From a phage, in the sequence record NC_042307.1: a DNA stretch of 64,000 nucleotides, one strand, 5' to 3'. Within the stretch, counting starts at the first letter, position 1. Every line of letters begins with the position of its first letter. The notes beneath the pieces were generated by a model. It had not been told where the DNA came from and did not search any database. It saw only the letters and a list, made by a program, of their open reading frames with translations. The translations under genes and the position numbers were made by a program. This document shows positions 30,448-45,675 of this stretch, one piece after another.

Positions 30448-32715
30448 TTAAGGAAGGTCTTGATTTGGAGCGGGGTCTTCAGGTAGAGTGGTTGGTTTAT
30501 CTTCTAACAAAGACTCTAACTTACTGACACGGGCGCTTAGCACCTGGATAGCAGCAAGCGCATCCAGTAACAGCACGTTAGTATCAAGCGAAAGAATTGT
30601 ATTTCCCTCCTTGTCCTCGCTTGAGTGTGTGTATTCAGGGTCTATGGTTGCCGCTTGCTGTGCAATGATTCCACGACGTACCCGACGCTTTATATCATCT
30701 TTGAAGATAAACGTCACGAGCTCTAACTGATTGATGTTGTTTAACGCACTCTTACCGTCCCATGGCTCAACCTGTTCTTTATAATCAATGTCGCTTGTAG
30801 GATCCAGCGTTACTCGCCCAATACGAGTACTATCAATCCATACATCGACTCCCGGATTTTCCCACGAGAAAGAATAGCTATTTGCTTGGAAATTACCACC
30901 AATACCTCTACGGCAAATGACACCTGCCGAGGGTAAGAGAGTTGTTAAGCGAGTAGCATCGTAGGTATCTAAAACAGATCGTGCAGTTCCATCGTAAAAA
31001 TCTACACGAGCGGCGTACTGTGTCACCTGCCCCGCCCCATAACTCAACTCCATGTTACCGGACGCCTCTCCTGGCGCACCTGTGTTACGACTAATAATCA
31101 GGCTTCTAATATTAGACATTTCGCCAAAGTCGCTAAAAAGATACTCCCAGCTTTCACCGGACACTCGAGTAGGCTTAATGCAGGCATATGTGACGCTTCC
31201 TACTGTGTGGTTTACGTAAAAATCAGCAGTCGCCGTTCCGATACCATAGCCTTCTACAATTGATCGCCACGACCAACCCAAAATTTGACCTGTTGAGCCA
31301 GCAGGATAATAATGTTTAGTAGCAATCATGGCGGTCGCAGTGTCACCACCTTTGGACAGCGCCCCGATGTTGTTGCGAGCACCCTCTGCGTCCCAAGCTC
31401 CAGTGCCGCCCTGTCCTACTCCTAAAGGTTTAAATACATTACTAGTATCGTCATAGACACCCCAAGACCCTGTATCCATTACAACTAAGTTGTAGCGGTT
31501 TGTCGGGTCATAAATGCGGGAACTATCAGCGCTCTGTTTAAGACGATCCACACTTAGGTTTATACGAGCCTGTACCTTGTCACTTAAGTCTGCAAGGTTC
31601 TGATCCTTTAACAAAGATATGCTCAAAGTTTGTTCAGCTTTGTTTGCTGCGGTCTCAGCTCGAGTTGCGGAACTGGATGCTGCTACGGCTTGTTCTCCTG
31701 CGGTTGTAGCGCTTCCAGCCGCGGCTGTAGCCTGTTCTGTAGCCGTTACTGCCTTTTGTCCAGCTAAGGTGGCAGCGTCTTCCGCAGCTTGTTTTAACGG
31801 GGTGATTTCAGCAATTGCGTTTGCCTTAGCTGTGTCAATTGCTCCTACTGCGTCCGTCTTAGCTGCTCCAATCTCTGTCGCCGCACCTTCTTTAATGGTC
31901 TGAGTGTCCGCTTTAAGCTGTTCAACATCGGACTTAAGACCCTGTATTGTGGTCATAGCTTGCGTAGCTATGTTCGCGCTATCTGATGCACCTTGCTGAG
32001 CTAGCTTAGCAGCGTCTTCACTAGCTTTTGAGTTAATTTCGCTAGTCTTTGTATTAGTTTCTGAGTTTTTTGCTGCTAATGCTGATGTGGAGGCTTGTGC
32101 AGCGAATGCTTCTGCTTCATCCCTGAATCCTTTGGAGTCAGAAGCAGAGGCAGCGGAATCAGCAGCATTAGTCTCGCTAGTTTTTGCTGCTGCTGCATAT
32201 GCTGCTGCATTAGTCTCGCTAGTTTTTGCGTTAGTCTCACTAGTTTTTGCATTAGTCTCACTAGTTTTTGCTGCAGCTGATGATTCTAGAGCGTTAGTTT
32301 CACTAGTTTTTGCTGCAGCTGATGATTCTGCAGCTTTAGTAGCGGACGCAGCAGATTGAGAAGCAGAAATAGCAGAGGCATCGGCACTATCTTTAGATAA
32401 ACCAGCTTGTCTCTCCGCTTCAGTAGCAGAAGTAGCAGATTGAGTTGCAGAAGCTTCTGAAGAGTTAGCATAATTTGCAGATAGGTTCTCAGAGTCCTTA
32501 GCATTTATTTCAGATTCTTTTGCTGCAATTTCAGAATCTTTTGCAGCCGCAGCAGACTTAGCTGCTGCCTCAATAGAAGATACTAACTCACTTGCAGTAA
32601 TAGAGCTAATAGAATTACCTAGAGTTACTGTATATCTAGGAAACTTACTAGCAGTAGCTTTAGTATCGTCAATATTTAATATCTGTTGTACAATAATTTT
32701 AGTAGTTACTGACAT
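30448..32715 (-). CDS. L-shaped tail fibre protein with C-terminal intramolecular chaperone (peptidase S74-like) domain
   Basis: 755 aa; Ala/Ser/Thr-rich N-terminal repeats (AKTSETNA); C-terminal SDIDYKEQVEP...RGIIAQQAATIDPEYT...KLESLLEDK matches the auto-cleaving chaperone domain of endosialidases and T5 pb1. Confidence 0.8.
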   Translation of the reverse strand: MSVTTKIIVQQILNIDDTKATASKFPRYTVTLGNSISSITASELVSSIEAAAKSAAAAKDSEIAAKESEINAKDSENLSANYANSSEASATQSATSATEAERQAGLSKDSADASAISASQSAASATKAAESSAAAKTSETNALESSAAAKTSETNAKTSETNAKTSETNAAAYAAAAKTSETNAADSAASASDSKGFRDEAEAFAAQASTSALAAKNSETNTKTSEINSKASEDAAKLAQQGASDSANIATQAMTTIQGLKSDVEQLKADTQTIKEGAATEIGAAKTDAVGAIDTAKANAIAEITPLKQAAEDAATLAGQKAVTATEQATAAAGSATTAGEQAVAASSSATRAETAANKAEQTLSISLLKDQNLADLSDKVQARINLSVDRLKQSADSSRIYDPTNRYNLVVMDTGSWGVYDDTSNVFKPLGVGQGGTGAWDAEGARNNIGALSKGGDTATAMIATKHYYPAGSTGQILGWSWRSIVEGYGIGTATADFYVNHTVGSVTYACIKPTRVSGESWEYLFSDFGEMSNIRSLIISRNTGAPGEASGNMELSYGAGQVTQYAARVDFYDGTARSVLDTYDATRLTTLLPSAGVICRRGIGGNFQANSYSFSWENPGVDVWIDSTRIGRVTLDPTSDIDYKEQVEPWDGKSALNNINQLELVTFIFKDDIKRRVRRGIIAQQAATIDPEYTHSSEDKEGNTILSLDTNVLLLDALAAIQVLSARVSKLESLLEDKPTTLPEDPAPNQDLP
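32160..32330. repeat. imperfect tandem repeats of a ~24-nt unit (gcattagtctcgctagtttttgc) inside the tail fibre gene
   Basis: At least five copies visible between 32160 and 32330; encode AKTSETNA-type repeats on the minus strand. Confidence 0.7.
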
Positions 32716-33137
32716 TATTTAGTTACCCCATCACTGATAAATACTTTACCCTCCATTATACGAAAAGAGCTAATTGCAGATCCTATAACATCTCGTGTCA
32801 TAATTATATCATAGTATCCTGCAAAACGTTGGCGAGGATTATATTTATCTCTTTCTTTGGTGGCTTTTTCACCAATATTCTCTACCGCCTCTACGGGTAA
32901 ACTTATAGCTATAGCACCTTGAGCAGCATCAATAATTTTAGTAGTAAAAGATGCCAAAGTTTCCGCATTCTCGTCAAGCCCGGCCTTTATAGTACCCCTT
33001 AGGGAATACCCTGTTAAGTTAACAGGGGTATTTGTAGGTGGATAAGTACTATCATCAACATCTAAGAATTGCATCATTAGACCATAAGGTACTTTCTCAG
33101 CTATTACTAAGTCTATAACTCTATTTTCAGTACTCAT
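32715..33137 (-). CDS. small tail/baseplate protein (T5 p132-like by size and position)
   Basis: 140 aa, immediately downstream of pb4-like gene and upstream of tail fibre gene; start overlaps fibre stop. Confidence 0.45.
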
Positions 33138-38770: not shown

Positions 38771-41700
38771 TTAAGAATTTCCTAGTGTTTTTAGGCTAGC
38801 ACCATTCTCATTCAGAGCTAATTCTACTGCATCCCTCAGAGCACCGCTATTACTAGAGGCGAACTCTCTAAAACTAGCGGCATCCATAGCACTAATATTC
38901 AGGATGATAGGTCTTCCTGAGGTTGAATTAGAGGAATTTTTTAACTCATCATTAGGCGTAGCTTTCATAGGAATCATAGGTGTAATTACTTCTGTACCAT
39001 GTTCTCCCATCTGGTAGCTAACCCCTGGGTACATATTACCACCTTCGGCACGCGGCACAAATGAATTAGCATTACCAATACCTTGATCACCACGTACATA
39101 AGATAGTTCTCCAGCATTAGCAGACATAGATACATCAATGTTCTTCTGACGCTCTCCAAGAGTTAAATAACTAGTAGTATCCGCTCCAGAATCTGCAATA
39201 CTTGACATACTAGAGGCAGAGGATGCCTGCGCTAATGCCAGAGCACCTGCTAATCCTGCCGCTACCATCAGAGGGATAGAGAACGGGTATGGTACAGCTG
39301 TTGCTGCCTGCATAACTGCTACTGCAGTTTGGATGATAATCTGCTTCTTAGCTGCATCTTGTTGAATCTTCAGCTTTTCAGCTTCTAGCTTCTTCAATTT
39401 AGCTTTAGATGCTTCTGATTTACCATCACGTTTCTGCTCCGCTGCGATAGCTGCATCAATAGCACTAACCTGTTGACTAGTACTATACTGAATCATAGAA
39501 GATACAGTTTGCATGCCAGAAGCAATCAAGGAGGTAGTATCTAGGGATCCCTGAGAGAACTGAATCATAGCGTTAGTTAAGTTACCCATACTTTGAGCCA
39601 CAGCGGTTGCTTCAGAATTTAATTCAGATAGCTTAGAGATTGCCTGATCATAAGAAGCCATTCTATTTTGCATATCTGCAAAATCTTTGTCTTCCCCAGA
39701 TAGTCCAGTTGTAGGAGTGTACACAGCACCCACAGAAGATCCTACCTGTTGCTGCATTTGGCCTTCTCTTTGCTTTCTAAGTTGCTCTAGAGCAGCAGCA
39801 GTTTTATAGATCTCATTACGATACTTGATCTCTTCTTCGGTATTGCCCTTAGATAGTTCTAGCTGTTCTTGCAAAACAGATAATCTTTCCGTAAGAATCT
39901 GAGCTTGGCCAGTAACATTTCTTTGTGTTTGGCTGACTTCTAGTGCATCCATGAGAGCTGATACATGTGAGGCAGTTGCCTGCTTCTCCGCCTCCCATAA
40001 CTCCCGGCTTATTTGTGCTTGCGCACGTCTAGACTGTTCCGCCTCTTTCTGTTTGTCCGCTTGTTTTGTATACCATTCGTACTTCTCTTTCTCTACAGTT
40101 AGTTCTAGTTTTAGCTGAGCTAATCTATATTGAGTAGTAGTCATAGTACGGTCATTCAGAAGAGCTATCTCACGATCTACACCAAGAATTTTATCTGTGT
40201 AATCCTTGACCTTCTTCTGGGCTTCCATACCCTGATTGGTAAGTTTAAGTTTCTCCAGCTGAATTTTTTCAATTTCTTTCTCAACAGCTTTATTTCCCTG
40301 GTTTGTTTGAAGAACACGGCGTAAAGCAGCTTCTTGCTCTTCTAACTGTTGCAACTCTAAACGTCTACCAGCTTCCTGAGCCTTTTCCTTATCCTTAGTT
40401 TGATTATACACATCTGCTATCTTCTGATGAACAGCCAACTGATTCTTAGTCTCATTACCAGTTAGCTTAACGTATTCAGACAAGGCTTGAGAAGCAGTTT
40501 TCATCTCAGATAGTGTGTTATAACCTAGGTTAAGGTTTTTAACATACTCATCTGCGCTTTTACCGGTACCTTGAGATAGAGATTCTATGTTTTTTATAGC
40601 ATCTGCTAAAGTAGCACTAGTTTTAGCTGCAGTATCTGTATTCTGAGCAACGTTTTGTATATCATTAGCTAAGTCACTAGCAGTTTTCTTAGTTTGATTA
40701 TATGCTTTCTGTTGTTCAGTTAGTCCTTTTAATACTGTGGAGTTAAAGTCATATACAGCACCAGGATCAGTAGTATCCCTCTGTAGATTAATCTGTTTTT
40801 GGAATTCTGGATTAGCTTTTGCAGCAGCAGCACCCGCAGCTTGATAGGCTGACTTCCAAGCATTAAGGTTTTCAGTAGAATCTTCTACCTCCTTACCTAG
40901 TCTGGTTACTTGTAGACCCATAGCCGCAGTTTCTTCTACGAATTTTTTATTAGCTTCGGAAGCACCGGCAGCAGCAAGACCAACAGGAATACCTTCACCA
41001 ACTTGACGTATGGCTAATCTTGTATAGAAATCCGCTTGCTCCATTCGTTTATCGAATTCGGATTTTAGCTTATTACGCTTATCAAGAGATTCCTTATACA
41101 TATCTAGAGCTTTATTATAGCCTTCTTCAGAAGCGGCCAAACTTAAAGCAACAGCACCAACGTTGGTAGGATCTATCTGTCTATTAGTTTTTTCTTGAGC
41201 TCTAGCTGCTTCAGCAGATACAGAAGCCTGAGAAGTATAAAATACTGTGTTGATAGCATCAATTACTGGCCCTAAGTACTTAGCAGCAGCCTGCTGAATC
41301 TTTCTCAGTGCGGCATCAGCATTAGCGGCAAACTGCTCCCACGGGGTAGCACGTAAAACTTCATCTAAGTAACCAAAACGTTTAGTAGACTCTGCTATAA
41401 CAGCATTAGCATACGCTTGCTGTTTCTGGAAGGTAGTAAGGCTATTAATATTATATGTTATACCTGTGTTTGCAGCATTTAACTGTTTAACGTAATCAGC
41501 ATAAGCATCGTTAAGACGAATAGTAACACCAAGCTCATCCAGAAGTTCGATTTCCTGTTTAGATACACCCTTAATTACACGGTTAAGTGCATCAGTCATA
41601 TCAACGCCAAGAACAGCAGCAGCACGACGAGCTACTAGACCAAATTTATTAAGTTGTTCAGCATCAAAACCGTATGCAGAAGCAGAGGATGCTTGTCTCA

Positions 41701-42451
41701 TAGCTTCTTCAAAGGAAATAGCGTACCCGGCTGCTTCTTGTAGGGATCTAGCAAGGGACTGAACAGGAGTACCTGTCTGAGTACCCACTATAACACCAAA
41801 TTTTTCTAGACGATTTAGCTGATCACCTAGTTTAAGTTGTTCGAATGCAGATTGCAAAACGAAGATGTTGGAAGCAAGAGCTGCATACATAATAGGTAAA
41901 CTACCACCGATCTTAGCCATTGCTGCAAAGTCACGGGTAGCCCCACGTGCCGAACCAGAAGTATTACCAATAGCTCTAGAAGCTCTACCAGCAGCACCAG
42001 TAGTATCATTAAAGCCTTTAGCCGTACCTCCTAAAGCCCTATTAGTGTCGTATAACCTATCTTGAACTTTCTCTGTTGCAGCTGCAACATCATTGCCCAT
42101 TGTTTTAACAGATCTAGAAACTCCATCGAATCCAACTTCTAGCTTATCAGCTACCTCGATCATTGTAATAGCAAGGTCGTCCAGCTTAGCTCCTATATCA
42201 TTAATAGATTTAGTAACACTAAGCATACCCCTACTAGCCTGCATTTTAGTAAGACTTTTTGCTGCTCTATCTGCTGCCCTCTCAATGGAGTATAGAGTTT
42301 TGGGCATTTTACCTAACTGTTCATTCGTTAGCTCAGAAGCCGCAGCAGCATTCTCTAATGCATCAGATACGTTTTCAATAGACTTTGCAGTACGAGTTGC
42401 CCCCTTCTGTTTAACGTCTATTAGTAATTCTCGTATTAGCTTATCAGTCAT
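38771..42451 (-). CDS. tail tape-measure protein (T5 pb2-like)
   Basis: 1226 aa, extensive coiled-coil, C-terminal hydrophobic segment (IIIQTAVAVMQAATAVPYPFSIPLMVAAGLAGALALAQ); downstream of chaperone pair. Confidence 0.8.
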   Translation of the reverse strand: MTDKLIRELLIDVKQKGATRTAKSIENVSDALENAAAASELTNEQLGKMPKTLYSIERAADRAAKSLTKMQASRGMLSVTKSINDIGAKLDDLAITMIEVADKLEVGFDGVSRSVKTMGNDVAAATEKVQDRLYDTNRALGGTAKGFNDTTGAAGRASRAIGNTSGSARGATRDFAAMAKIGGSLPIMYAALASNIFVLQSAFEQLKLGDQLNRLEKFGVIVGTQTGTPVQSLARSLQEAAGYAISFEEAMRQASSASAYGFDAEQLNKFGLVARRAAAVLGVDMTDALNRVIKGVSKQEIELLDELGVTIRLNDAYADYVKQLNAANTGITYNINSLTTFQKQQAYANAVIAESTKRFGYLDEVLRATPWEQFAANADAALRKIQQAAAKYLGPVIDAINTVFYTSQASVSAEAARAQEKTNRQIDPTNVGAVALSLAASEEGYNKALDMYKESLDKRNKLKSEFDKRMEQADFYTRLAIRQVGEGIPVGLAAAGASEANKKFVEETAAMGLQVTRLGKEVEDSTENLNAWKSAYQAAGAAAAKANPEFQKQINLQRDTTDPGAVYDFNSTVLKGLTEQQKAYNQTKKTASDLANDIQNVAQNTDTAAKTSATLADAIKNIESLSQGTGKSADEYVKNLNLGYNTLSEMKTASQALSEYVKLTGNETKNQLAVHQKIADVYNQTKDKEKAQEAGRRLELQQLEEQEAALRRVLQTNQGNKAVEKEIEKIQLEKLKLTNQGMEAQKKVKDYTDKILGVDREIALLNDRTMTTTQYRLAQLKLELTVEKEKYEWYTKQADKQKEAEQSRRAQAQISRELWEAEKQATASHVSALMDALEVSQTQRNVTGQAQILTERLSVLQEQLELSKGNTEEEIKYRNEIYKTAAALEQLRKQREGQMQQQVGSSVGAVYTPTTGLSGEDKDFADMQNRMASYDQAISKLSELNSEATAVAQSMGNLTNAMIQFSQGSLDTTSLIASGMQTVSSMIQYSTSQQVSAIDAAIAAEQKRDGKSEASKAKLKKLEAEKLKIQQDAAKKQIIIQTAVAVMQAATAVPYPFSIPLMVAAGLAGALALAQASSASSMSSIADSGADTTSYLTLGERQKNIDVSMSANAGELSYVRGDQGIGNANSFVPRAEGGNMYPGVSYQMGEHGTEVITPMIPMKATPNDELKNSSNSTSGRPIILNISAMDAASFREFASSNSGALRDAVELALNENGASLKTLGNS

Positions 42452-42465
42452 ATTTTATTTTTCCC

Positions 42466-42498
42466 AATAAAAAGGCTCTGGGCATATCACCCAGAGCC
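42466..42498 (-). terminator. rho-independent terminator directly upstream of tape-measure start
   Basis: ggctctggg-catatca-cccagagcc followed on minus strand by tttttattgggaaaaataaaatATG. Confidence 0.6.
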
Positions 42499-42534: not shown

Positions 42535-42903
42535 TTACCGTGCACGAGATCTAGCATGTGGCTTAACGTTAGGTATTCTACCGTTTTGCGGCTTATGCTT
42601 CTCAGCACGTTTACGTGCAGCGTCTACAGCTTTAGCATCAAATATATTGATGATGTGTAGAACAAATTCTTTTTCTATAGGATCGGTAATCCCATAAATA
42701 TCGAATAAAACACCTAGGGCAGCCTTGTCTTTACCTATAAAGATAGGGAAGTCACCAGGTATGAAACAGTCAACTAGACTATTATAAATATTCATACTAA
42801 TAGCTACAATAGGTGGAAAATCTTCAAGTTCAACAGGCATAGCCTTAGGATCAGGTTCTATACCCATTGACTCACAAAGTATTAAATATTGTTGTTTAGT
42901 CAT
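42535..42903 (-). CDS. tail assembly chaperone, downstream ORF (candidate T-like extension)
   Basis: 122 aa; no Shine-Dalgarno upstream of ATG; frame stays open upstream into the end of the preceding ORF (42968-42990). Confidence 0.45.
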   Translation of the reverse strand: MTKQQYLILCESMGIEPDPKAMPVELEDFPPIVAISMNIYNSLVDCFIPGDFPIFIGKDKAALGVLFDIYGITDPIEKEFVLHIINIFDAKAVDAARKRAEKHKPQNGRIPNVKPHARSRAR

Positions 42904-42964
42904 TTTAGATGCTGAGCTTTTAATACACTTATCTGCAAAATCAGCAACAGCATCTAGTAGTTCT

Positions 42965-43369
42965 TTACGCTTTTGAGCTACGAAAAGTGTCTAAGTGGAA
43001 CACTGTCTGGTTGATCCAAGAATCAAACGCAGCAGAGTTCTGCATAAGCATTACAGCATTATCACGACTAAATGAAACTTCAGTAGCAGGATCAGCATCT
43101 GTTTCAATCAGCATCAGTTTTTCAACATCGCCTACAGTCAAACCAGTCCAACCTTTAATCGCAGCATCAACGAAAGCCTCAATAAACTTATCGTCATCCT
43201 GTACTTGAATTAGAGTACCATTAACCCATTCATCGCGTTTGGCAGAAGAGACAACACGCTTAGAAGTAGCACGAGACATGTAGTTAAGCTCTAGCTTAAA
43301 GTTTGGCATACCTGGGTATGAAAGAGTAATAGTACGGGTATCAAGAGTAATATCTTTTAAGTTAATCAT
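42965..43369 (-). CDS. tail assembly chaperone, upstream ORF (G-like)
   Basis: Start moved to ATG 43367-43369 (GGAGA RBS 8 nt upstream); position immediately upstream of tape-measure gene. Confidence 0.5.
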   Translation of the reverse strand: MINLKDITLDTRTITLSYPGMPNFKLELNYMSRATSKRVVSSAKRDEWVNGTLIQVQDDDKFIEAFVDAAIKGWTGLTVGDVEKLMLIETDADPATEVSFSRDNAVMLMQNSAAFDSWINQTVFHLDTFRSSKA

Positions 43370-44264
43370 TTTTAATTTCTCCAAAGAAATCTATTCTCAC
43401 AGGGTCTGAAGAAGCAGTAGGTATAATATCCCACTCAACTTTATACACATCTGAGAAATTTAGGCGTTTTGTAATACGTGCTAAAGGAAAATCTATAGAA
43501 ATATTATTATTTCTTATATTTAAAGGTACATCGGTTTCTGGTTCAATATTGTAAACCATATCTCCAGCAAAACGTTTTAAGTAATATAGAGAAATGGTTG
43601 CTGAAGCATTCATTTCATTTACATAGGCTCTTTTATTATTATAGACTTTATTTATATCAAAAACACTCTTATCTTCTCTCCAAGAGCATTGCTGTTGAAA
43701 AGATAAAGAAGCGGAAATAAGACCAGGTAAGATGCTACCGTTAGTAGAAACTATTACCGGGCTATAAGACATTGCTTCACCCTGTATAATAGAAGCTGCT
43801 TCTCTATATGTAGATACTTCGGAGAATTTCCCTGATTCGATACCAACGTTAAGAATTGGTATATTCTTATCCAAAGAAAAATCTACAGTAGATACATAGC
43901 AGTTCTCAAAATATACACAGTTATTATCTTTATTTACTATATAGATATTAAACATAATAGGTTCAATATTGTTACTATATAGTGGTAGTAAGAAAGTATT
44001 ACCTTTTCTATCAAAACCTAGCCATTCAAAAAAGTTAGCTTCAGTAAGTGTATTACTAAAATTTATTGCTAATGATATGGAAGAAGGAGTTTGAGCATTT
44101 ATAATAGAGTCTGCATAGTTAGTTCTACGATGAATAGTCCTACGAAGAGTCTTAAATTCTTCGTAGGAGGTTTGTACATCATAGTTTGTTAGGGCATCAA
44201 AATGAAATGCCCTACCATCATACTCAACTAAAACTTTTGACTCTCGCATTAGAGAGTAGTACAT
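43362..44264 (-). CDS. tail protein (T5 p140-like by size and position)
   Basis: 300 aa between tail tube gene and chaperone genes. Confidence 0.45.
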   Translation of the reverse strand: MYYSLMRESKVLVEYDGRAFHFDALTNYDVQTSYEEFKTLRRTIHRRTNYADSIINAQTPSSISLAINFSNTLTEANFFEWLGFDRKGNTFLLPLYSNNIEPIMFNIYIVNKDNNCVYFENCYVSTVDFSLDKNIPILNVGIESGKFSEVSTYREAASIIQGEAMSYSPVIVSTNGSILPGLISASLSFQQQCSWREDKSVFDINKVYNNKRAYVNEMNASATISLYYLKRFAGDMVYNIEPETDVPLNIRNNNISIDFPLARITKRLNFSDVYKVEWDIIPTASSDPVRIDFFGEIKND

Positions 44265-44268
44265 TTAT

Positions 44269-45675
44269 TTAACCACCAGCACTAACTGTGATAGTTTTAG
44301 TACCTTCTACACCAGAACCGTCTTTAGCTACAGCCTTCACAGTAACTTCACCAGTTCTAGAAGCATCGGCTGTTAATAGTCCAGATTCGGCATCAATCGT
44401 AGCGGCGTCACCACTAGAGATAGACCAAGTCACAGCCTTATTAGTAGCTTCTGGAGGTGTTACCTCAACAGACATCTGTAAAGTATTACTATTTGTTACA
44501 GAAGTAGCATCAGCAGCAGATTTAACTGTGATTGATTCGACTAGTTTTGGTGGAGTTTTAGCACCATCCCCCGTAGCAATCAGATTAGCCACAGTAGTTT
44601 TTGTATACTTGTTAGAAAATCCAAGATAACCTTCGTCACCAGTATCCAAATCTGTAGGAATAGCCTTAAACTCTACTGAAGTACCAAGTACATCATCAGT
44701 CTCAATAGTAGGAATGTTAACGTGTGCCTGTTTAGCAACTAACACAGCTGCCGGACGTTCATCATCATATTCACCACCGAGGATAAGTGCGATTTCAAAA
44801 CGGTTAACTACCTTAAGGGTTTTAATTAGATCTTTATATAATTCCATAGATCCTAGAGCTTTATCGTTAAGGTATGCCGTTAGAGAACCCGTTAACTCAA
44901 ATGCACCTGTAAATGAGCCAATTGAAATATTTACACGTGACATAATATCCGGGGTTAGGTACGTGATGTTGTTATTAATGGTAAAAGTACCACCAGTAAT
45001 AGGAATATCATATGCCTTATCAGAATCCATATCCTTAATTTTCAGGATAGTTAACTTGTTCTTAATGTAAGAACTCTGAATAGTCATATAGGTTTCATCA
45101 TCAATACCTAATGCATCCGGATCAAATGGTTGCGCATCCAGAGGAATAAGCTGATTACCATTACCAGACCAAGTTACACGACCAATATCCTCAATATCAA
45201 CGTTAACTTCTGCCTGATTAATCTGACAGGAATCGATATAACTCCATGCTTTATCAGTCAGAATATAAATATGTAACATTGCTAACTCATGATAAGAGTT
45301 ATCTTTAAAGTTAACCATGAAGTTAGCTTCATTATTATGCGCACCTGTGTCTCCCTCAAGGTTTAATGCTTTACCACTAGAAAGAGCGTGCCATAACATA
45401 TAGTCAGGAACAATCTGTTTGTTAGTAGTTTTATCTTTATATGGCAGGATATAAGTAGAGAAACTCCACTCAGCCGCGTTTAAAGAGTCATTAAAACGTT
45501 TAGAACCACGAGTTGGACGCGGACCAGCTTCATTAACAGTAATATCTGTTGAGTTACTGTCCTGACCCCAAGAAATATCATCCTGAACTAGAATCTCTTG
45601 CGTGTTGGTCTTATCATGACCAGTCTTAACCGTAGACACGAAGATTCGAGTATTACGTAATAGTTGTAAAGACAT
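44269..45675 (-). CDS. major tail tube protein with C-terminal Ig-like (Big_2-type) domain (T5 pb6-like)
   Basis: 468 aa; C-terminal AVTWSISSGDAATIDAESGLLTADASRTGEVTVKAVAKDGSGVEGTKTITV typical of Big_2 decoration domains. Confidence 0.75.
   Translation of the reverse strand: MSLQLLRNTRIFVSTVKTGHDKTNTQEILVQDDISWGQDSNSTDITVNEAGPRPTRGSKRFNDSLNAAEWSFSTYILPYKDKTTNKQIVPDYMLWHALSSGKALNLEGDTGAHNNEANFMVNFKDNSYHELAMLHIYILTDKAWSYIDSCQINQAEVNVDIEDIGRVTWSGNGNQLIPLDAQPFDPDALGIDDETYMTIQSSYIKNKLTILKIKDMDSDKAYDIPITGGTFTINNNITYLTPDIMSRVNISIGSFTGAFELTGSLTAYLNDKALGSMELYKDLIKTLKVVNRFEIALILGGEYDDERPAAVLVAKQAHVNIPTIETDDVLGTSVEFKAIPTDLDTGDEGYLGFSNKYTKTTVANLIATGDGAKTPPKLVESITVKSAADATSVTNSNTLQMSVEVTPPEATNKAVTWSISSGDAATIDAESGLLTADASRTGEVTVKAVAKDGSGVEGTKTITVSAGG

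Follow-up and report, generated by a model that had tools for sequence, protein, structure and literature searches.

A pair of small overlapping open reading frames (ORFs) lies directly upstream of the tape-measure gene in the 64,000 nucleotide (nt) stretch of phage DNA analysed here (sequence record NC_042307.1, hereafter the window), and the two ORFs appear to encode a tail assembly chaperone and, by way of a +1 ribosomal frameshift, a longer G-T fusion of the kind known as G/GT in phage lambda. The 969 bases around this pair found matches in 443 phage records, the best being Salmonella phage Shivani (97.7%) and Escherichia phage DT57C (96.9%), and on this similarity the window is that of a T5-like phage of the genus Tequintavirus, family Demerecviridae. 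Every gene of the locus is carried on the minus strand, in the transcription order pb6-like gene, minor tail protein gene, G, T, a terminator-like hairpin, and then the pb2-like, pb9-like and pb3-like genes, so that the small ORF pair follows the tail tube genes and precedes the tape-measure gene, as in G/GT-type loci. The G-like ORF (42965..43369, ATG at 43369, TAA at 42967-42965; identified from the ORF list and from phrog_313) encodes 134 amino acids (aa) and is the homologue of T5.143, a locus tag taken from notes in the Slocum record. It is the product of standard decoding and is preceded by a Shine-Dalgarno sequence, GGAGA at 43378..43382, 8 nt before its ATG. The T-like ORF in its usual annotation (42535..42903, ATG at 42903, stop at 42537-42535) encodes 122 aa, is the homologue of T5.142 and would form the C-terminal domain of the fusion.

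The T frame is offset by +1 relative to G and is open from 42990, a UAG in the +1 frame at 42991..42993 marking the 5' limit of the interval within which a shift yields an open fusion. The resulting overlap of 26 nt takes in the final 8 sense codons of G together with its stop, reading ACU UUU CGU AGC UCA AAA GCG UAA in the G frame, with UCA-AAA-GCG-UAA at 42976-42965. There is no purine-rich Shine-Dalgarno sequence before ATG 42903 (AAAAGCUCAGCAUCUAAA), and upstream of that codon runs a start-less T-frame extension of 26 codons (VAQKRKELLDAVADFADKCIKSSASK, 42904..42981), predicted to be translated only after a frameshift, the first 17 nt of which are dual-coded with the G tail RSSKA*. Counted over its full 29 codons, the T-frame extension contains no ATG, GTG or TTG. 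A first-pass annotation of the window had reported the +1 offset, the open frame overlapping the last 8 codons of G, the UCA-AAA-GCG in the overlap and a downstream ORF without the clear Shine-Dalgarno sequence of neighbouring late genes, and all four readings hold on inspection, the +1 offset being seen in every cultured relative as well as in the window. An open extension of at least 29 codons was present in 4 of 68 ORFs of at least 100 aa in the window (random expectation 0.15), and is therefore not significant by itself, such that the case for a fusion rests on conservation among relatives.

This conservation was assessed as coding constraint among 33 unique T5-like and Epseptimavirus sequences. 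Within the stretch of 78 nt from the proposed shift site to ATG 42903 there were 23 variable sites, distributed 5/1/17 over the T-frame codon positions (binomial p=8e-5), the same pattern as in the bodies of the two ORFs (26/5/90 for G and 17/9/68 for T), and these 23 sites resolved to just three protein variants. At the two variable sites of the dual-coded stretch the changes are silent in the T frame and alter the residue in G (S/P and A/T). In tblastn searches with the whole open T frame, alignments to Klebsiella (53% identity), Vibrio and Proteus phages started at residues 1-4, i.e. 26-29 residues N-terminal of Met 42903. The methionine itself is replaced in eight related lineages: Sugarlandvirus and KKP_3711 have Ile, AAS21 and Slocum have Val, PG07 and the L016 group of loci have Leu, and Thalassa and phi3 have Phe. 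An extension that is of coding type but start-less, together with a methionine that is not conserved, means that the T frame must be entered from the G gene; on this evidence the extension must be translated, yet not initiated within itself, and the T domain is apparently without a conserved route to independent expression. A hairpin on the minus strand, formed by UAGAUGCUG...CAGCAUCUA at 42906-42956, stops 3 nt short of ATG 42903 (z=-1.9; centroid energy -20 kcal/mol) and could hide that codon from internal initiation; its outer stem is retained in Epseptimavirus but is not found in other genera.

To locate the shift, the overlap was compared across approximately 75 loci sampled from an annotated phage collection and from IMG/VR. 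In all 17 lineages with a +1 T frame, cultured or metagenomic, the overlap contains the zero-frame motif xxx_UUU_CG(U/A). These lineages comprise the genera Tequinta-, Epseptima-, Sugarland-, Novosib-, Priuna-, Myuna-, Hongcheon-, Pogseptima-, Thalassa- and Jesfedecavirus, along with Shenzhenvirus Akh-2, Serratia phage Slocum, Pantoea phage AAS21, Enterobacter phage KKP_3711, Vibrio phage D232 and the metagenomic loci L014 and L063. In the window the motif gives a proposed +1 shift site, UUU_C, at 42982..42985, composed of the Phe129 codon UUU (42985-42983) and C 42982, the first base of the zero-frame CGU (42982-42980). The E-site codon varies among lineages (ACU, AAC, AAU, UCU, UCC, UCA, ACG, ACC or GGG), and the A-site codon is always CGU or CGA, the latter in the PG07/X1, Thalassa and Akh-2 lineages. 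This invariance of UUU_CGN, like the gene order, the reading frames and the constraint on the extension, is a direct observation. The record of the Aeromonas phage Akh-2 (MK318083.1, L008) has many tiny annotated ORFs and a G homologue whose frame is broken well before its expected end, which looks like the result of sequencing frameshift errors in the record, with the motif, as CAG_UUU_CGA, still there.

Both the residue and its codon are fixed at this position. Phe129 is invariant in 18 aligned G proteins and is encoded by UUU in 23 of 23 unique tails, whereas the equally invariant Phe115 is encoded by UUU in 15 and by UUC in 8. The choice of Phe codon in the 59 non-overlapping window ORFs of at least 100 aa depends on the following base, UUU being used in 36% of cases before a pyrimidine versus 71% before a purine (Fisher p=3e-19), a rarity that fits a genome-wide avoidance of the +1 shift-prone UUU_Y. 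The G proteins align with one another as far as Phe129, and the zero-frame tails beyond it are 1-21 aa long and unrelated; when the fusions of 22 lineages are joined at Phe129, their alignment runs through the junction with no gap. Vibrio phage D232 and Pectobacterium phage My1 have an overlap of just 14 nt, AC(A/U)(A/C)CUUUCGUUAA, which leaves UUU to UUC as the sole possible re-pairing site in these two phages.

A further line of evidence comes from more distant relatives in which the same genes would be joined in the other direction. The canonical X_XXY_YYZ slippery heptamer is not the arrangement of the window, where, as in all cultured relatives, the offset is +1. Several metagenomic contigs encoding proteins 23-40% identical, however, have a -1 T frame and canonical slippery heptamers. 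In loci L015-L021, L024-L027 and L032 the heptamer is A_AAU_UUU on the same Asn-Phe codons, and in L029-L031 and L033 it is A_AAA_AAC, placed 11 codons later and directly before the G stop, such that the segment read elsewhere in the shifted frame is here encoded in frame 0. One metagenomic locus (L063, IMGVR_UViG_3300001450_002043, 1580-1670) has a +1 T frame and the sequence GAA_AAU_UUU_CGU, in which the -1 heptamer seen in its nearest relatives and the +1 site typical of the T5 group occur together; it may represent an evolutionary intermediate or a bidirectional site. In a neighbour-joining tree, which is in effect unrooted, the -1 lineages formed one clade beside L014 and L063. The heptamers in these metagenomic contigs provide independent support for recoding as the means by which the family makes its fusion, and for the Phe codon as its usual site.

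The identity of the pair as chaperones was examined with profile searches. The family phrog_313, annotated 'Tail assembly chaperone' and 258 positions long, was matched by G over positions 12-141 (E=7e-33) and by T over positions 170-258, the pattern expected of a family that contains fused proteins, and the T ORF also matched phrog_3914, likewise annotated as a tail assembly chaperone (E=1e-56). Neither window protein was matched in Pfam; among 18 G homologues, 6 gave sub-threshold matches to Phage_TAC_5, the best at E=7e-4. Profile searches of the Protein Data Bank yielded chance matches only and no relative, and an AlphaFold single-sequence model of G had a predicted local distance difference test (pLDDT) score of 34 and was unusable. 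An exhaustive HMMER search with the extended T frame recovered T-sized ORF calls and two spurious repeat proteins, and there was no natural in-frame G-T fusion among its top 146 matches. The gene order, the PHROG matches, the coding-type extension, the non-conserved Met and the +1 offset in every cultured relative support the view, already put forward in the first-pass annotation, that these are a pair of G/GT-type tail assembly chaperones upstream of a tape-measure gene, the tape-measure protein being the presumed client.

Taken together, it is very probable that a G-T fusion is produced by a change of frame within 42990-42965, and likely, with somewhat less assurance, that UUU_C at 42985-42982 is the main site of that change. 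We infer the slip, its efficiency and the functions of the proteins as follows. The majority of ribosomes would terminate at UAA 42967-42965 and release the 134-aa G protein. In a minority, peptidyl-tRNA-Phe on the Phe129 UUU, with the A site awaiting a tRNA for CGU, would slip by +1 onto UUC (42984-42982), after which translation would continue through GUA GCU CAA and onwards in the +1 frame, past ATG 42903, to the stop at 42535. The predicted coding sequence of the fusion (42535..43369, as join(43369..42983, 42981..42535)) gives a product of 277 aa with the junction ...HLDTF|VAQKRK..., continuing as ...HLDTF-VAQKRKELL..., somewhat larger than the approximately 260 aa first estimated. A shift at UUU_C predicts the junction peptide ...INQTVFHLDTFVAQK, and the fusion would contain the peptide segment VAQKRKELLDAVADFADK, which is not expected if the two proteins are made separately. 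By analogy with lambda, the G part would bind the tape-measure protein pb2 and the T part would recruit the tail tube protein, with a low frequency of shifting setting the G:GT ratio.

Several observations weigh against this reading or limit it. There is no Shine-Dalgarno-like or purine-rich tract upstream of UUU_C that could act as a stimulator, and the downstream RNA folds are not conserved, their z-scores ranging from -3.3 to +1.2 according to position; the hairpin at 42956-42906 was rejected as a family-wide stimulator, being present in the T5 clade (z=-1.9) but not conserved elsewhere. CGU is the commonest Arg codon in the window ORFs (379 of 845), such that a 'hungry' A site is not evident in the enterobacterial lineages, and the window contains no tRNA genes. 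In-frame UUU_CGU occurs six more times in the window ORFs, for an observed total of 7 against 8.7 expected, so that the tetranucleotide alone is not a specific signal and its efficiency may be low. With no stimulator, a common A-site codon and a motif that is not rare, the efficiency of the shift is probably low, which would suit a G:GT ratio like the 30:1 of lambda. The conservation of Phe-Arg could partly reflect a protein constraint on the end of G, and AAA_G falls within the same 26-nt interval in the T5 clade, where it is possible as a secondary site. The Sugarland genome note, in a statement citing Zivanovic et al. 2014, describes the chaperone as lacking a predicted frameshift signal, 'similar to T5'. 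Among the further occurrences of the motif, the ORF at 32715-33137 (minus strand) carries an in-frame UCU_UUU_CGU at codon 125 of 140; its +1 frame meets UAA two codons on, and it is therefore not a second recoding candidate.

An alternative in which the fusion is made, but by a shift at the A-run UCA_AAA_G, was the mechanism favoured in the first-pass annotation, as a slip of tRNA-Lys from AAA to AAG (...TFRSSK|RKELL), and also underlies the only public fused annotation, that of Shivani, as a -2 join (...TFRSSK|KRKELL). The site, AAA_G at 42970..42973, lies within the permitted 26-nt interval, each of the 33 unique T5/Epseptimavirus sequences has G or A after AAA (AAA_A in phage falkor), and tRNA-Lys decodes both AAA and AAG. 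Conservation in relatives, the check proposed for this mechanism, gave a divided result: the overlap and the +1 arrangement are kept, but the A-run is not kept outside the T5/Epseptimavirus clade, while UUU_CGN four codons upstream is invariant. The run reads AAA_C or AAA_U in Sugarlandvirus and AAA_U in Enterobacter phage KKP_3711, and it is missing from Pantoea AAS21, Serratia Slocum, Proteus, My1, D232, PG07 and Thalassa, all of which have the +1 arrangement. Further, the S/P polymorphism just before AAA (TCA/CCA) leaves the T-frame residue unchanged, consistent with T-frame translation of that codon, and a -2 slip at the run would place tRNA-Lys on CAA with a first-position mismatch. A shift at the A-run as the means of making the fusion is thus improbable, other than as the alternative or secondary site already mentioned for the T5 clade.

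The locus could also be expressed with no recoding at all, as two proteins with the 122-aa product begun at ATG 42903, for example through reinitiation by ribosomes that have terminated at the G stop, 62 nt upstream. Nearly all GenBank records follow this reading, often calling the proteins hypothetical; Met is found at the 42903 position in about half of the lineages, where many database ORF calls begin, and the Sugarland note's remark on T5 points in the same direction. Such an explanation is, however, difficult to reconcile with an ATG lacking a Shine-Dalgarno sequence and replaced by AUA, GUU, GUA, CUA or UUU-type codons in eight lineages, with 78 upstream nt that are of coding type (p=8e-5) and conserved at the protein level in distant relatives, with a +1 overlap around UUU_C in every cultured lineage, or with canonical -1 heptamers at the same place in relatives. 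Separate expression as the sole outcome is accordingly quite improbable, and an extra T-only product within the T5 clade is possible. The suggestion that the extended T frame is begun at a non-canonical start inside the extension, yielding an independent protein of approximately 140-150 aa unlinked to G, draws on the upstream GTG starts annotated in Klebsiella K32PH164C1 (directly after UUC), Thalassa and Pantoea AAS21 and on database ORF calls such as P0017 and P0018 that take in the extension, but it is highly improbable, as ATG, GTG and TTG are absent from the extension in the T5 clade, Proteus, D232, My1 and others, the start positions are neither conserved nor preceded by a Shine-Dalgarno sequence, and the invariant UUU_CGN and obligatory overlap with G would be left unexplained.

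Three other routes into the T frame were considered and rejected. A shifty stop is precluded by the last sense codons of G (GCG, CGU, AUC and others), which are unable to re-pair at +1; transcriptional slippage has a T-run of merely 3-4 nt to work with; and a -2 slip would leave the tRNA to re-pair with CUU or ACU if it started from UUU, and with CAA if it started from AAA.

The flanking genes conform to a T5-like tail operon. The pb6-like tail tube gene lies at 44269-45675 and the 300-aa minor tail protein gene, a T5.144 homologue, at 43362..44264, directly upstream of G and with its end overlapping the G start. Downstream, the 1226-aa tape-measure or pore-forming tail tip gene (38771..42451), annotated as 'T5 pb2-like' in the Shivani record, is separated from the T stop by a strong terminator-like hairpin at 42474..42498, with an 11 bp stem containing 7 GC pairs followed by the U-tract UUUUUAUU; all of these features are on the minus strand. 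The PR1 and Slocum records carry an annotated terminator between the T ORF and the tape-measure gene, and terminator features underlie the matched region in AKFV33 and EASG3. A terminator at this position, within the tail operon and just 5' of the tape-measure gene, may set the ratio of tube and chaperone to tape-measure transcripts.

The closest functional parallel is the gpG/gpGT system of lambda, which uses a programmed -1 frameshift (Levin, Hendrix & Casjens 1993; Xu, Hendrix & Duda 2004, 2013, 2014; as cited in PMC5009743) and in which, according to the account in PMC5009743, G binds the tape measure, T recruits the tube protein and G:GT is 30:1. As in lambda, there are two small overlapping ORFs just 5' of the tape-measure gene, the second without its own initiation signals, and neither product is expected in virions. 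Unlike in lambda, the shift proposed here is +1, with no X_XXY_YYZ heptamer and a single P-site tRNA-Phe on UUU_C, and no similarity of sequence between these proteins and lambda G or T could be detected, nor any significant Pfam match.

For the shift itself, the nearest parallels are found outside phage tails. Bacterial UUU_Y sites that are prone to +1 shifting are discussed in PMC5009743 together with the YopN-TyeA fusion of Yersinia, which resembles the proposed event in its +1 slip of tRNA-Phe from UUU onto UUY, in having no adjacent stop or elaborate stimulator, and in giving low-level fusion of adjacent ORFs; YopN-TyeA is, however, a regulator of type III secretion, whereas the product here is a phage chaperone and the site is conserved across a virus family. 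The +1 cassette of influenza A virus PA-X, UCC_UUU_CGU (Jagger et al. 2012, cited in PMC5009743), has the identical P- and A-site codons, UUU_CGU, and the same proposed mechanism, in which tRNA-Phe moves from UUU to UUC before Arg-tRNA has entered the A site, but on a eukaryotic ribosome and with CGU rare in the host, whereas in the window CGU is common and across the phage lineages the E-site codon is not conserved. A precedent for +1 shifting in tail chaperone genes is the G-T pair of the archaeal myovirus HSTV-2, termed 'very likely +1' in the passage of PMC5009743 that treats it, although the virus is unrelated and its host belongs to a different domain. Slippage by +1 in the P site to give a C-terminally extended product is likewise shared with prfB (RF2, CUU_UGA) and with SPP1 gp17.1*, the prfB shift having a stop codon in the A site that is absent here. 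In addition, prfB carries a Shine-Dalgarno-like stimulator upstream of its site, and SPP1 too shifts at a shifty stop; UUU_C has neither.

With respect to prior annotation, an exact-sequence look-up of ten candidate junctions returned one public fused annotation, the Shivani 'tape measure chaperone' (AJA73579.1 / YP_009194776.1). This joined coding sequence has the same locus, the same idea of a G-T fusion and the same length of 277 aa, but its junction is the -2 join after AAA rather than UUU_C, with no published justification, and the Shivani genome announcement does not mention the chaperone. In the literature searched on T5, T5-like or Demerecviridae chaperone frameshifting no description of the UUU_C site was found. 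The Shivani record is thus a precedent for the fusion, not for the site, and what appears to be new here is a G/GT-type chaperone frameshift, so classed from its sequence features, that would run +1 on UUU_CGN and is conserved family-wide. The view that emerges, held with some reserve but favoured, is that the Demerecviridae apparently use a minimal, stimulator-free +1 shift on UUU_CGN and that the direction of shifting has also switched at one homologous Phe codon, being -1 on A_AAU_UUU in some marine relatives and +1 in the others.

T5 is a model siphophage with a well-studied tail structure, and its chaperones are still annotated separately in almost all of more than 400 genomes. If the proposed shift is correct, the annotation of a whole phage family would be corrected, including that of many therapeutic Salmonella and E. 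coli phages, and UUU_CGN would become a family-wide conserved case of +1 frameshifting on bacterial ribosomes. The -1 and +1 solutions found at the same codon of homologous genes would further offer a natural system for studying what sets the G:GT ratio and how recoding signals change in evolution.

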